A DNA stretch of 64,000 nt, taken from Lacisediminihabitans sp. GTDB taxonomy: Bacteria > Actinomycetota > Actinomycetes > Actinomycetales > Microbacteriaceae. The translations under genes were made by a program, and so were the position numbers. The notes under the pieces were generated by a model, which saw only the letters and a list, made by a program, of their open reading frames with translations, was not told the DNA's origin and made no database searches. Numbering within the stretch: position 1 is the stretch's first letter; each line of letters begins with the position of its first letter. This document shows positions 49,304 through 53,266 of this stretch, one piece after another. The stretch covers positions 378-64,377 of the forward strand of contig NZ_DATCQQ010000019.1 in the NCBI RefSeq assembly GCF_036569425.1, in the 5' to 3' direction.

Positions 49304-49537
49304 TCAGTTCCTCCGGAGCGTGAGGGCCAGCCTCGGGCAGAGCGCGACGGCGTCCTTGGCCGCCTCGAGCTGGGACGCGGCGAGTGGGACGTCGCCGCCC
49401 GAGCCGTCGCGGGCGAGAGGGTAGCCCCATTCGTCCCGCGCCAGGCGCTCCGGCAGCAGTTCGGTGCACAACCCCCGACCGTCGCACAGCGTCCAGTCGA
49501 TGTGCAGGGTGGCCGCCGGGCCGCGCTCCCGGCTCAT
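49304..49537 (-). CDS. Ferredoxin, [3Fe-4S]-type
   Basis: IDWTLCDGRGLC...CP (three Cys); ATGA overlap with the upstream gene. Confidence 0.88.
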   Translation of the reverse strand: MSRERGPAATLHIDWTLCDGRGLCTELLPERLARDEWGYPLARDGSGGDVPLAASQLEAAKDAVALCPRLALTLRRN

Positions 49538-50787
49538 GCCGCCACCCCGGCGCGCGCCCGCCTGTCGGCGAGGCATCCGCCGGCCAGGTGCGCCTTGACC
49601 TCCCCAGAGAAGACCGTGAGGGCGCTCAGCACGATTCGGGTGGTGCCGTCCGGATGGTGGCAGCTCCCCCGGCCGCTCACGAGCGCGGCCAGCCGACGGA
49701 TCTCGGCGGGGAGCCCGGTATCGCGGCTTCCGCCGGCGAGCTTCTCGAGCACCTCGGCCATCCTCGGCAACCCGTTCGCGCACGGGCCACACTGCCGAGC
49801 CGACTGCGCGGCGAGATAGCCGGCGATGGCCGCCGATACCCTGAGGCCGCAGGATCCCGAGTCGAGCAGAACGAGGATTCCCGCTCCGGGCGTCGCGCCG
49901 AACGGGGCGAGGTCGTGCCGGGCGAGCGGCGTGTCCAGGCGCTCGGCCGGCAGCCACGCGCCGTGGTAGCCGCCGACGAGCACCGCGGCGAGATTGTCTG
50001 TGCTTCCGCCGGCCGCCCGCACGAGGCCCGCGATCGTCATGCCGCCCGCAACCTCGCGCACGGTCGGCGCGAGGGCGCTTCCGCTCACCGTGACGAGCCT
50101 CGTGCCCGGTTCGTCTTCTGTGCCGAGCCGTCGGAACCATTCCGCCCCGAAACGCGCGATGAGCGCCACCTGCGCGAGAGTCTCCACGTTGTTGAGCAGG
50201 GTGGGCCGGCCGCCGAGTCCCGAGCTGCTCAAACGGTGCGTCTTGTCCCGGGGCAGCGCCGGTCCACCCTCCAGGGAGCGGATCACGGCCGACGCCTCAC
50301 CGGAGAGGAACGCCTCAGGCACCTCGCGGAGCCGGATGGCCGCGGCATCGGTCCGCTCCGCGATGGCCCGCGCGACGTACGGCAGGCTGGCCGCCGTCGT
50401 CACAAGGTAGAGCTCCCGCGCCCCGATGGTGCGACCGGCGAGAAGAAGGCCGTCGATCACCAGGTGTGGGGCGGCTCGAAGAAGGGTGGCATCCTTGGCG
50501 CTCCTCGGCTCGCCCTCCGCCCCGTTCGCGACGACCACCGCCGCACCGGCACGCGACCGCGGGTCCTGGCCGCTTCCGGCCGCAGCGAACTTGCGCCAGG
50601 CCGGGAACGCCGCGCCTCCCCGGCCCTGGAGCCCAGACGTCTGGAGTTCGTCGATGAGGTGCGACGCCGGTCGCCCGTTCGGCACGGGACCGAAGGTGGC
50701 GAGGTGGCTCGCCAGGTCGGGAGCCGGCGCGGCAAAGAGCCTCCCTGCCCCCTGTGGCGGTCGTACTTCGCCCACTGTTCCGGTCAT
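49534..50787 (-). CDS. NuoF/HoxF-like flavoprotein (51-kDa FMN/NADH-binding subunit homolog)
   Basis: SGLQGRGGAAFP, NGAEGEP..AKD, FLSGEASA, NNVETLA, QCGPCANG...GSCHHPDG. Confidence 0.88.
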   Translation of the reverse strand: MTGTVGEVRPPQGAGRLFAAPAPDLASHLATFGPVPNGRPASHLIDELQTSGLQGRGGAAFPAWRKFAAAGSGQDPRSRAGAAVVVANGAEGEPRSAKDATLLRAAPHLVIDGLLLAGRTIGARELYLVTTAASLPYVARAIAERTDAAAIRLREVPEAFLSGEASAVIRSLEGGPALPRDKTHRLSSSGLGGRPTLLNNVETLAQVALIARFGAEWFRRLGTEDEPGTRLVTVSGSALAPTVREVAGGMTIAGLVRAAGGSTDNLAAVLVGGYHGAWLPAERLDTPLARHDLAPFGATPGAGILVLLDSGSCGLRVSAAIAGYLAAQSARQCGPCANGLPRMAEVLEKLAGGSRDTGLPAEIRRLAALVSGRGSCHHPDGTTRIVLSALTVFSGEVKAHLAGGCLADRRARAGVAA

Positions 50788-51341
50788 CGTGCCTCTCCCT
50801 TCCGCGTGTTCCCGAATTCGATGAAGTTCGCCGAGACCCGCCAGGCGACCGCGACCGCCACGAGCACGACGCTCGCGAGCGCGAGGGCGAGAAACCAGAC
50901 GGACGTTCCGTCCGTGCCGTTGCCGATCGAGTGCGCGAGGGCAACGGGCCACAGCGCGTAGGTGAACCAGTGCACAACGCGGAAGACGCGTCGGCCGATC
51001 CAGCGCCTCAGCAGGCTCGTGACGATGATGGCGAGCAGCAGGTCCAGCGCAACGGTGCCGAGACCGAGCCAGAACGGCTTGGCGGCGCCCAGAAACGGTA
51101 CGAAGAAATCCACCACTCTGAGCTGGGCGTACGAGTCGAAGAAGAGGGAGACGATGTGGATCAGGAGAAAGACGCTCGCCAGCAGCGAGGCGTTGCGGTG
51201 CACGAGGGTCACCGAGAATCGCGGCAACCCGAGGAGCGGGTGCCCGGAGCGGGTCACGATTCCGAGCACGACCGACACCGTCAAGAGCAGCAGCGCGACG
51301 ACGCCGGTCCCGCGACCGAGCGCCCAGAGTGCCTCGTTCAC
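50784..51341 (-). CDS. Ferric-reductase-like transmembrane (di-heme b) protein lacking cytosolic FAD/NAD domains
   Basis: Five TM segments; four His in VHRN, IHIV, VHWF and AHSI; GTGA overlap. Confidence 0.85.
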   Translation of the reverse strand: MNEALWALGRGTGVVALLLLTVSVVLGIVTRSGHPLLGLPRFSVTLVHRNASLLASVFLLIHIVSLFFDSYAQLRVVDFFVPFLGAAKPFWLGLGTVALDLLLAIIVTSLLRRWIGRRVFRVVHWFTYALWPVALAHSIGNGTDGTSVWFLALALASVVLVAVAVAWRVSANFIEFGNTRKGEAR

Positions 51342-52267
51342 GGCGCGACCCCCTCGGTGCCCGGCTCCTCGGCCGGCCACCCGCCGAGCGTGACGACGCG
51401 CGCCTCGCGGTCCACGAGACGGGCGGGCAGGCCGCGGTCCCGCACCAGATCGAGCGCGCGGTGTCCGCGGACGATGCACGCCGTGCTCACCGTGTTGGCC
51501 TCGACGCAGCTGCGCGCCGAGACGGTGGCGCTCCGCCAGACCGGCTCTGCAGGTCGTCCGAGCCGCGGATCGAGGATGTGGTGCATCCGTTCGCCTGAGC
51601 GGGTCCACTGGCGCTTCTGCGTGCTCGACGTCGCCAGGGCGAATCCCGCAGCGAGCGTGACGGTGGCGCGGGGGTCAGCCGGCAGGTCCTGCACGAGCAC
51701 GACCCAGCCGCCGTCCGGGGACGGTCCGGCGGTCGCGATGTCGCCGCCGAGGCTCACGAGCACCCCGGTGGGCAGCTCTGCGGCGATGCGGGCGGCCGCG
51801 AGATCGGCGGCGAACGCCTTCGCCGTCGCGCCGAGGTCGAGGGCGAGGTCCGGCGGCACCGTCAGACGGCGTCCGTCGAGCACGACCCTGCGCCAGCCAG
51901 GCACTATCGCCACTCGAGTGACGGTGGTGCCGAACGCGCGGTCGGTGACGAGGGCGATGTCGCGGTCGTAGCCGAGCGAGGCGAGCTCGTTGCCGAGCGT
52001 CGGGTCGACGTCGCCGTCGGTGAGCTCGGCGGCGCGAAGGGCCTCGCGCACGAGCGCCGCGAGCATCCCGCTCACCTCGACGCCGTTCGGCAACTCCGGG
52101 GAAAGCCGGGCGAGCTCCGAGTCGGGGCGAAAGCGGCTGCACGCCGCGTCGACCTGGTCGAGCACCAGCCTCGTGATCTCCACCGCGCGCTCGAGCTGGT
52201 GCACCTCCGTGACGACCACGCGGGCCGTCGTGCTCCATACCGGCCAGTCGGCCGCATCGCCCGGCAC
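51338..52267 (-). CDS. apbE: ApbE family FAD:protein FMN transferase, no signal peptide
   Basis: SRFRPDSEL, T.GDVDPTLG, DLGATAKAFAAD, SLGGDI, ATSS, HHILDPRLG, ANTVSTA. Confidence 0.9.
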   Translation of the reverse strand: MPGDAADWPVWSTTARVVVTEVHQLERAVEITRLVLDQVDAACSRFRPDSELARLSPELPNGVEVSGMLAALVREALRAAELTDGDVDPTLGNELASLGYDRDIALVTDRAFGTTVTRVAIVPGWRRVVLDGRRLTVPPDLALDLGATAKAFAADLAAARIAAELPTGVLVSLGGDIATAGPSPDGGWVVLVQDLPADPRATVTLAAGFALATSSTQKRQWTRSGERMHHILDPRLGRPAEPVWRSATVSARSCVEANTVSTACIVRGHRALDLVRDRGLPARLVDREARVVTLGGWPAEEPGTEGVAP

Positions 52268-52268
52268 G

Positions 52269-52508
52269 TCAGGAGCCGGTCGTCTGGGCCTGGCTGCTGC
52301 CTGCCGAGCTCGAGCCGACCGCCGAACTCGAGGTCGAGCCGCTCGACGTCGTGCCGCTCGAAGTCGTGCTGCCCGCGGTCGAAGCGGTCGTCGCCGTTCC
52401 CGCGGACCAGACGACTCCGCCGACCGCCGCCGTGCCGATCACGCCGGCGACGGTCAGCGCCGCGGTGAGCGCCCGCGTGCGACGCTTGCCCAGTTCTCGT
52501 ACGTTCAT
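52269..52508 (-). CDS. 79-aa exported or membrane-anchored Ser/Thr/Gly-rich micro-protein
   Basis: AGGAG RBS; basic N-terminus (KRR), hydrophobic helix, S/T/G tail ending AQTTGS; stop 1 nt before the apbE start. Confidence 0.8.
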   Translation of the reverse strand: MNVRELGKRRTRALTAALTVAGVIGTAAVGGVVWSAGTATTASTAGSTTSSGTTSSGSTSSSAVGSSSAGSSQAQTTGS

Positions 52509-52565
52509 GACTCCCGCTCCTTCTCCATCACGTTTCTCGCGATAAGGAGAGTGTCGAGCCGGCGC

Positions 52566-52615: not shown

Positions 52616-53266
52616 TCAGAGCATGAGATTCGCGGCGAGGAACTCGTTCACGTCGTCGAGCTCTTCGCGCGAGATGGAGTGCCCGATGCCCGAATAGACC
52701 CGGGTCGTGAGAGTCGAGTGGGCCGGAAGCCAGGCGGCGGTGCGCTCGACCGCCGACTGAGGGATGACCGGGTCTGCGGCATCCCGCCCCCAGAAAACGG
52801 GCGGTCGCAGCGCCTGGAGCCGCTCGTCGGCCGGGGCCTCGCCCTGGACGACGAAACCGGCGAGGTTCACGGAGGCGGCGAACCGCTCGGGGGCGTGCCG
52901 CGCCAGGTGCAAGGCCATGGCCCCGCCCTGCGAGAAGCCGAGCACGCCGACCGGGCCGGTCGCGAGCACGGTGTCGAGCCATTCGAGCAACGCGGAGACC
53001 GCAGCGTCCGCCGCGACCAGGCTCGGGAGGCCGGGTTCACCGACCGGGAACCAGGTGAACCCGTCGCCGAGGGCGAGGGGAGCGCGAACCGAGGCGATCA
53101 CCGCGCGAGGCGGAAGGAGCGGCGCGAGGGCGAACAGGTCGTTCTCGTGCGACCCTCGGCCGTGGAGGAGCACCAGCAGCGGCCGGGACGCAAGCGCCTC
53201 CGCTCGTTCCGCCTCGGCGACCGACCAGACGACGGCGGACGGGTCGATGGCGAGACTGGACGACAT
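52616..53266 (-). CDS. Phospholipase/carboxylesterase (alpha/beta hydrolase)
   Basis: LLHGRGS, GFSQGG, DPVIP, GHSI triad. Confidence 0.92.
   Translation of the reverse strand: MSSSLAIDPSAVVWSVAEAERAEALASRPLLVLLHGRGSHENDLFALAPLLPPRAVIASVRAPLALGDGFTWFPVGEPGLPSLVAADAAVSALLEWLDTVLATGPVGVLGFSQGGAMALHLARHAPERFAASVNLAGFVVQGEAPADERLQALRPPVFWGRDAADPVIPQSAVERTAAWLPAHSTLTTRVYSGIGHSISREELDDVNEFLAANLML

Follow-up and report, generated by a model that had tools for sequence, protein, structure and literature searches.

A domain-less peptide with a conserved flavinylation-like terminus, probably a natural flavin tag, is encoded beside ApbE in an actinobacterial electron-transfer operon

The window described here is a 64,000-nucleotide stretch of Lacisediminihabitans sp. 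(Microbacteriaceae; assembly GCF_036569425.1), lying on a contig that we refer to as C19. Between positions 52508 and 49304 it carries five open reading frames (ORFs) on the minus strand with no intergenic space. The first encodes a 79-residue peptide and is followed by genes for an ApbE-family enzyme, which moves flavin mononucleotide (FMN) from flavin adenine dinucleotide (FAD) onto proteins, an MsrQ-like membrane cytochrome b, a NuoF-like protein and a ferredoxin. The GTG start of the ApbE gene begins one base past the TGA of the peptide gene, the GTG start of the MsrQ-like gene overlaps the ApbE stop codon (GTGA), and the NuoF-like and ferredoxin starts each overlap the stop codon of the MsrQ-like and NuoF-like genes respectively (ATGA in both cases). 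The five genes are one translationally coupled operon, and the strong Shine-Dalgarno sequence AAGGAG that precedes the ATG of the 79-residue ORF supports its real translation. Our subject is this peptide, which we propose as a substrate of the adjoining ApbE. The elements of the operon are:

52269..52508, minus strand: gene for the 79-residue peptide, the proposed domain-less flavinylation substrate (ORF call)
52517..52522, minus strand: Shine-Dalgarno sequence AAGGAG, 8 nucleotides (nt) 5' of the peptide ATG (sequence reading)
52272..52292, minus strand: proposed flavin-attachment heptapeptide Q-A-Q-T-T-G-S, followed by TGA, with the terminal Ser as the proposed FMN acceptor (logo of 87 orthologs)
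51338..52267, minus strand: ApbE-family FAD:protein FMN transferase of 309 residues, GTG start (PF02424, E 3.8e-49)
50784..51341, minus strand: MsrQ-like (Ferric_reduct, ferric-reductase-type) membrane cytochrome b of 185 residues (PF01794, 39.1 bits, cut-off 28)
49534..50787, minus strand: NuoF-like flavo-iron-sulfur protein of 417 residues, oxidising NAD(P)H (reduced nicotinamide adenine dinucleotide, with or without the phosphate) (Complex1_51K, E 1.3e-27; NADH_4Fe-4S, E 2.4e-15; weak SLBB)
49304..49537, minus strand: single-cluster ferredoxin of 77 residues (Fer4_15, E 1.7e-10)

The peptide (79 residues in full, MNVRELGKRRTRALTAALTVAGVIGTAAVGGVVWSAGTATTASTAGSTTSSGTTSSGSTSSSAVGSSSAGSSQAQTTGS) begins MNVRELGKRRTRALTAALTVAGVIGTAAVGGVVWSAGTATT and ends SSQAQTTGS. 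It is made up of a basic N-terminal region (KRRTR), one hydrophobic helix and a 46-residue tail rich in Ser, Thr and Gly. A first-pass annotation of this DNA had described the ORF at 52508..52269 (minus strand) as KRR, a hydrophobic helix and a Ser/Thr/Gly tail ending QAQTTGS, with look-alikes of the [ST]GA[ST] flavinylation motif and no exact copy; both descriptions agree with the peptide sequence, in which SSGT, SSGS and TTGS are present and [ST]GA[ST] occurs nowhere. The terminal Q-A-Q-T-T-G-S likewise departs from the exact motif D-x-x-[ST]-G-A-[ST]. The peptide matches no Pfam family at E <= 0.01 and in NCBIfam only one spurious low-complexity model, far below its cut-off; a protein homology search with this short, low-complexity query returned no homologs. 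It falls outside every recognised flavinylated domain (FMN_bind, NqrB/RnfD, DUF2271, DUF3570, FMN_red and Flavodoxin_4).

Comparison was made with 97 related loci, 17 of them from 41 genomes of the same genus and order and 80 from a scan of one genome per species, which was queried with the ApbE alignment and gave at least 574 confirmed relatives. The genera represented among the 80 include Cryobacterium, Subtercola, Curtobacterium, Gryllotalpicola, Arthrobacter, Actinoplanes, Kutzneria, Nocardioides, Nocardia, Mycobacterium, Pseudonocardia and Streptomyces. An ORF encoding one hydrophobic helix and a low-complexity tail stops at the ApbE start in 87 of the 97 loci, and in 80 of these 87 the gap from its stop codon to the ApbE start is -4, -1 or +1 nt. 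The cassette peptide-ApbE-MsrQ-NuoF-ferredoxin is collinear and intact in about 62 of the 80 scanned loci.

The 87 orthologous peptides are 74 to 183 residues long, and their tails (26% Ser, 17% Thr, 14% Gly, 11% Ala) are unalignable apart from the last seven residues; beyond this tail motif only the N-terminal anchor segment is conserved, and the peptides otherwise differ freely in length and sequence. The consensus of the terminal heptapeptide is [HQD]-[AG]-x-[ST]-[SGT]-G-S-stop. Counting backwards from the last residue as position 0, Ser is found there in 87 of 87 peptides, preceded by Gly (83) or Ala (4) at -1, by Ser (34), Gly (25), Thr (15) or Ala (6) at -2, and by Ser (57) or Thr (30), thus Ser/Thr in 100%, at -3; Thr, Ser, Gln and Arg occupy -4, Ala (56) and Gly (17) are the residues recorded at -5, and His (32), Gln (27) and Asp (9) at -6. 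The register is that of D-x-x-[ST]-G-A-[ST], in which the FMN goes onto the last residue (PMC12052999). Three peptides of this set (L086, L109 and L110) have canonical endings, namely QAQSGAS in Actinocrispum and QVTSGAS and QATTGAS in Streptomyces, and a fourth (L102) ends VATSAAS. The commonest ending outside the Microbacteriaceae is [ST]SGGS, one Ala-to-Gly change from SGAS. We propose to read QAQTTGS-COOH as a variant of the ApbE recognition motif in which the register is kept.

An independent replication sample consisted of 400 genomes drawn evenly across the Actinomycetota, in which ApbE proteins of the clade were taken at E <= 1e-45. These were found in 16 of the 400, or about 4% of the species in this even sample, and the carriers belong to several classes and to 16 of 249 genera; in 14 of the 16 loci the upstream ORF ends in [ST][GSA][GA]S. 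Most of the endings are VTSGGS or AVSGGS, and one (L119) is SASGAS. The logo of upstream-ORF C-termini that the first-pass annotation had put forward as a check therefore yields a conserved motif, [HQD][AG]x[ST][SGT]GS-COOH, in 87 of 97 loci, repeated in 14 of 16 in the phylum sample.

A subfamily of longer peptides is seen in Mycobacterium and Mycolicibacterium (L076, L082 and L104). These are 156 to 170 residues long and Pro-rich, and share an extended tail, ...R(R/N)LTPTTV(x)APNYSPH(I/V)T(I/V)SRGS. Five other mycobacterial loci (L060, L072, L077, L089 and L101) have ApbE and ferredoxin genes with no adjacent peptide. In Curtobacterium, two loci (L059 and L099) carry the full cassette, and five (L055, L062, L065, L093 and L095) have a two-gene module of a peptide ending DATTTGS and an ApbE. 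The two-gene module is at a different locus, directly 3' of a gene for cytosolic FMN_red (an FMN reductase dependent on NADPH), and is without MsrQ-like, NuoF-like and ferredoxin genes.

The ending [ST][STGA][GA]S closes 96 of the 11,042 stop-to-stop frames of at least 45 residues in the 80 loci, and about 73 of these 96 are the peptide site; the background rate in the other frames is about 0.2% (about 23 in 10,960). At the nucleotide level the conserved Gly is encoded by GGG, GGC, GGA and GGT, and the terminal Ser always by TCN and never by AGY, a restriction that fits strict purifying selection, because one Ser codon family cannot change into the other while still encoding Ser at every step. 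The junction of peptide stop and ApbE start reads TC[AG]TGA in 42 loci, TGATG in 7, and TGAnATG or TGAnGTG in 31. The overlap in the TC[AG]TGA class constrains the third base of the Ser codon alone, and nothing is constrained in the +1 class (for example TCC-TGA-n-ATG). Relative to the peptide, ApbE lies in the -1 frame in 50 loci and in the +1 frame in 35. This codon usage and the varying frame relation point to selection on the amino acids, so that the motif is neither a recoding signal nor an artefact of a ribosome binding site, and its origin as a by-product of a ribosome binding site or start-codon overlap is ruled out by the use of four Gly codons and by the unconstrained +1 class.

When all 35,133 frames of the window's own assembly were scanned for a transmembrane helix, a low-complexity tail and the end motif, three real candidates emerged, the window peptide and one peptide each on contigs C16 and C26; two of the three are directly before an ApbE gene. 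The C26 peptide (C26:103978-104253, plus strand) is an orphan of 91 residues of the same family, MSIRSQGRELAASV...GQHAQSSGS, and closely resembles the ApbE-adjoining peptides of other species of the genus (L016, L017 and L019). No ApbE, MsrQ-like or NuoF-like gene lies near it, and the genome has a single cassette; the orphan must be a remnant or else a further substrate that is modified in trans.

The ApbE protein itself matches PF02424 with 168 bits (cut-off 25.6) over profile positions 15 to 258 of 266, and the PDB entries 6NXI and 1VRM at E 3.5e-23 and E 3.2e-22. In the alignment with the Vibrio cholerae enzyme (6NXI), S214 corresponds to Ser241 and H230 to the general base His257, and both positions are invariant in the 107 ApbE copies scored (107 of 107). 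Ser241, His257 and Asp285 are the conserved catalytic-centre residues in V. cholerae numbering (PMC12052999). The first-pass reading of an enzyme that starts at the catalytic domain, with no lipobox or signal peptide, is borne out by the DNA upstream, where the frame is open and contains no ATG, GTG or TTG, and where the Arg/Pro-rich translation has no hydrophobic core. A signal peptide or lipobox is therefore impossible with any choice of start, and an overlooked upstream start of this kind is ruled out. In the orthologs too, the start codon is only a few codons away from the conserved DWxxWS strand.

Three ApbE genes are present in the assembly, on contigs C70, C16 and C19, and each has its own neighbours. 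On C70 an MsrQ-like/FNR fusion is followed by a protein with a transmembrane helix, a Ser/Thr/Gly linker and an FMN_bind domain (VSGAT), and then by an ApbE with Asp at the position of Asp285. On C16 a 139-residue protein with a transmembrane helix and an Ala/Pro-rich linker (ending ...VHGSTGGSGG) is followed by an ApbE with Glu and then by an MsrQ-like/FNR/2Fe-2S fusion. C19 has the peptide (...QAQTTGS), an ApbE with Asn and no signal peptide, and the MsrQ-like, NuoF-like and ferredoxin genes.

The canonical C70 pair is instructive for the window peptide. The FMN_bind protein has at its N-terminus a short basic region, a transmembrane helix and a Ser/Thr/Gly linker, as in the window peptide, which in its sequence looks like an actinobacterial FMN_bind protein minus the domain, with anchor, linker and attachment site kept. 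The C70 ApbE (locus L001 1745-2515, plus strand) starts directly at the catalytic domain (MRHVFFTMGTAVSV) and has no signal peptide, and because this pair shows the same arrangement, the combination of a signal-less ApbE with a substrate that appears to be exported is not peculiar to the peptide operon and extends more widely in the organism. All matches to PF04205 (FMN_bind) in the assembly fall on C70, C58 and C3, and none is found on C19 at E <= 1, confirming that the window lacks an FMN_bind gene. The ApbE is nevertheless not strictly without a canonical candidate, as FMN_bind proteins are encoded on those three other contigs.

The C16 peptide (contig C16:14268-14912, minus strand; L005 2393-2812, minus strand) has a tail that is conserved in its relatives (L026 to L031), where the endings are ...[HN][GA][ST]TGGSGG (for example NGSTGGSGG), HAVTSGSGG and ATTGGSGH. 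From these sequences it looks like a second, independent family of tail-motif peptide plus ApbE, in which the Ser is followed by two further residues.

The products of the remaining genes of the operon have conserved cofactor ligands. The MsrQ-like protein has two histidine pairs, H48/H62 and H124/H137, that do not vary among its orthologs (66 of 66); they are the Hx13H and Hx12H pairs of the bis-heme ferric-reductase and NOX superfamily. The NuoF-like protein retains the GRGGAAFP flavin/NADH region, and as its score against TIGR01959 is far below the cut-off, it is not a Complex I NuoF. Its cysteines 313, 333, 336, 376 and 405 are conserved in orthologs, and the CxxCxxC motif of the N3 cluster is without its first Cys (reading QSARQCGPC); C313 or C405 probably replaces it, and the set as a whole suggests re-wired iron-sulfur (Fe-S) ligands. 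The ferredoxin has three conserved cysteines (C-x5-C ... C-P) across 67 to 69 orthologs.

Among the flanking genes, the upstream neighbour in the window is an Abhydrolase_2 esterase gene (52616-53266, minus strand). In 29 of the 80 related loci (L032-L111) the operon is closely preceded by a HisKA/HATPase_c sensor kinase gene, which may point either way and is some 1 to 2 kb from the peptide gene (for example L096 3292-5715, and L077 3997-6248, which adds a response regulator); it is absent from the window. The kinase could regulate the system. All-against-all clustering of flanking ORFs, which would have shown a further conserved partner (a terminal reductase or an iron transporter, for instance), returned only this sensor kinase and lineage-specific neighbours.

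The orientation of the peptide in the membrane can be predicted from its charges. The net charge has a median of +4 before the helix and -1 after it, and the N-terminal side is the more positive in 87 of 87 peptides, as expected of a positive-inside, N-in/C-out topology. The first-pass annotation had pointed to the twin arginines as a possible signal for twin-arginine translocation (Tat), and this was not borne out. The pattern RR-x-hydrophobic-hydrophobic is present in only 22 of 87 peptides; the window peptide reads KRRTRAL, and peptides of the same genus have GKRLALRV, GKHKARQV and KKLASN at this site. The twin-arginine is thus not conserved, and export by Tat as the general route is not supported. 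Cleavage-like sites of the AxA type follow the helix in 56 of 87 peptides, which is weak evidence in Ala-rich sequence; the peptide may be cleaved there and released.

We consider it likely, with due reserve, that ApbE flavinylates the peptide on its terminal Ser and that the peptide forms part of an MsrQ-like/NuoF-like system. The first-pass proposal of a non-canonical substrate for the adjacent ApbE thus gains support from the conserved C-terminal motif and its unvarying final Ser. The peptide is probably a natural C-terminal "flavin tag", a flavin carrier with no domain of its own in an operon for electron export driven by NADH, and the best explanation of its place in the operon is that this minimal peptide stands in for the FMN_bind-domain protein usual in MsrQ-like, NuoF-like systems. 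A plausible scenario is that the signal-less ApbE moves FMN from FAD to the hydroxyl of the terminal Ser79, probably in the cytoplasm, where FAD is available, and that the peptide enters the membrane in the N-in/C-out orientation, or else is exported, perhaps with cleavage, by a route that would generally not be Tat. Electrons would then pass from NAD(P)H to the FMN and Fe-S centres of the NuoF-like protein, to the ferredoxin, to the two b hemes of the MsrQ-like protein, to the tethered extracytoplasmic FMN and so to an acceptor. We infer this path from the domain content of the operon and from the published model for MsrQ-like systems, in which cytosolic NAD(P)H drives the export of electrons to a flavin on the extracytosolic side (Meheust et al. 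2021, eLife 10:e66878, PMC8238504).

Several observations weigh against this assignment. The window motif has T-G in place of the canonical G-A, and Q in place of the 'strictly conserved' Asp at its first position. Such a peptide is missing beside ApbE in about 10% of the clade loci, most of which are mycobacterial. The tail is predicted outside in all 87 peptides and ApbE has no export signal, so that topology and enzyme location conflict. As to expression, the sequence, whose source is a soil/permafrost metagenome bin, matched only DNA runs from soil, permafrost and peat metagenomes, and zero RNA runs were found. A further weak point concerns the enzyme, in which N258 (51494-51496, minus strand) stands at the conserved Asp285 position. 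Of 98 clade members, 97 have Asn there, where the C16-type clade has Glu and the C70 ApbE has Asp, and the substitution could mean that ApbE activity is altered or absent. Asn is able to ligate Mg2+ in other phosphotransferases, and on the sequences at hand we read Asn258 as clade-specific variation rather than inactivation. There is no covariation of Asn258 with GS as against GAS endings, the loci with GAS peptides also having Asn.

The peptide may instead have a role that involves no flavin, as a membrane anchor, an assembly factor or a small subunit of the MsrQ-like complex, with a C-terminus for docking, O-glycosylation or processing, while ApbE serves the FMN_bind proteins of C58 and C3. 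These carry SGAT or GGAT and have no adjacent ApbE, and could be its real targets; the inexact match of the window motif to [ST]GA[ST] points the same way, and Ser/Thr-rich extracytoplasmic linkers in Actinobacteria are commonly glycosylated. We nevertheless judge such a role unlikely: conservation in the tail is confined to a heptapeptide whose register is exactly that of the ApbE motif, some orthologs end in SGAS or TGAS, the pairing of peptide and ApbE persists at loci that have no MsrQ-like, NuoF-like or ferredoxin genes, and the second ApbE clade, on C16, is also preceded by an anchored peptide, ending ...STGGS-GG. A different possibility accepts flavinylation and keeps the tail in the cytoplasm (N-out/C-in, or not inserted), where its FMN would relay electrons from the NuoF-like protein and ferredoxin to the inner heme of the MsrQ-like protein. 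This would remove the topology conflict, as ApbE and FAD are located in the cytoplasm, together with the NuoF-like protein and the ferredoxin; it is compatible with the NOX-type Hx13H and Hx12H heme pairs, and would be analogous to the FAD of NADPH oxidase or to Fre feeding MsrQ. The charge bias seen in every one of the 87 peptides argues against it, as does the anchor and linker shared with the C70 FMN_bind paralog, such domains being modelled as extracytosolic in MsrQ-like systems; the AxA-type sites past the helix point outwards too, with the reservation made above. A cytoplasmic tail is, on balance, improbable.

A simpler proposal, that peptide and ApbE are one protein split by a sequencing error or joined by a programmed frameshift at the TGA, would place ApbE outside the cell. 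At the sequence UCC-UGA-C-GUG in the window a +1 shift would indeed fuse the two, and the site bears a superficial likeness to the prfB site. The split is, however, found in 87 of 97 genomes, the frame of ApbE is -1 in some loci and +1 in others as counted above, the TC[AG]TGA, TGATG and TGAnATG arrangements of stop and start are the signature of ordinary translational coupling, and fusion leaves the conserved ...GS ending unexplained. Frameshift, read-through fusion and sequencing error are ruled out by the varying frame and the stop-overlapping starts, and we attach hardly any probability to this proposal.

To our knowledge, the only targets known for flavinylation by ApbE are folded flavin-binding domains and extensions carried by flavoproteins. 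The flavinylated peptide that we favour resembles the canonical substrates (NqrC, RnfG, NosR, PplA and other FMN_bind proteins, DUF2271 and DUF3570) in having a Ser/Thr acceptor at the last position of the motif, with Ser or Thr again at -3, small residues in the two positions between them and a polar residue at -6, and in being encoded beside apbE. It differs from them in its motif, [HQD][AG]x[ST][SGT]GS, in that the acceptor is the C-terminal residue of the protein, and in lacking a folded flavin-binding domain, having only an anchor and a disordered linker.

The operon itself belongs with the MsrQ-like flavinylation clusters catalogued in Actinobacteria, 31 of which have a NuoF-like protein (Meheust et al. 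2021, PMC8238504). As in those systems, the window apbE adjoins a PF01794 cytochrome b with six helices and four histidines, and the NuoF-like (PF10589) module replaces the commoner fused NAD-binding (PF00175) domain; unlike them, the window cluster is without the typical FMN_bind gene and has the domain-less terminal-motif peptide in its place. The published screen dropped ApbE and FMN_bind genes that had no predicted signal peptide (Meheust et al. 2021, PMC8238504), and the small peptide is mentioned neither there nor by Huang et al. 2024 (bioRxiv 2024.03.13.584918).

Precedents for its separate properties are available. Unstructured C-terminal extensions of flavinylated FMN_red proteins are proven ApbE targets (Huang et al. 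2024, bioRxiv 2024.03.13.584918), and the engineered 7-residue Flavin-tag (Tong et al. 2021, reviewed in PMC12052999) suffices for ApbE, functions at a C-terminus and works best at a protein terminus; with changes of G to A or of A to V in the motif, flavinylation is still about 50% (PMC12052999). In both of these cases, as in the window peptide, the motif is on a disordered C-terminal segment. The tethered flavin of FMN_red, unlike that proposed here, folds back into the pre-existing flavin pocket of its own protein, and the Flavin-tag is artificial, whereas the window peptide appears to be a natural tag with no cargo domain. In Klebsiella pneumoniae the soluble NADH:fumarate reductase is flavinylated by a cytoplasmic ApbE (reviewed in PMC12052999). 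Like the window enzyme this ApbE has no signal peptide or lipobox, and it acts in the cytoplasm, but it modifies a soluble cytoplasmic enzyme that contains an FMN_bind domain, whereas the presumed substrate in the window is apparently exported or anchored, and the window enzyme has Asn in place of Asp285. The operon class, signal-less ApbE, the sufficiency of a heptapeptide and disordered FMN_red extensions are thus already known. In the literature searched, no natural domain-less protein is described whose sole conserved tail feature is a terminal flavinylation-like heptapeptide.

A more speculative extension, which we regard as rather improbable, is that such flavopeptides form a phylum-wide class in which the Asn-variant ApbE would esterify the C-terminal Ser in the cytoplasm, and the peptide would be exported with its FMN and, at least in lineages with AxA sites, cleaved to give a diffusible or wall-spanning shuttle. 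Were this so, pre-loaded export would solve the supply of FAD in bacteria that have no periplasm, and the released shuttle would be fed by a split, NOX-like NADH:heme b module.

Genomes with 'orphan' apbE genes imply that there are substrates yet to be identified (Meheust et al. 2021, PMC8238504). The proposed flavinylation of the peptide raises the question of how a cytoplasmic ApbE serves a tail predicted to be extracellular, a question that in this genome applies equally to the canonical FMN_bind proteins. If the proposal is correct, the peptide would supply the missing extracytosolic flavin of the NuoF-like variant of MsrQ-like systems, and would represent a new class of ApbE substrate, the natural counterpart of the engineered Flavin-tag.

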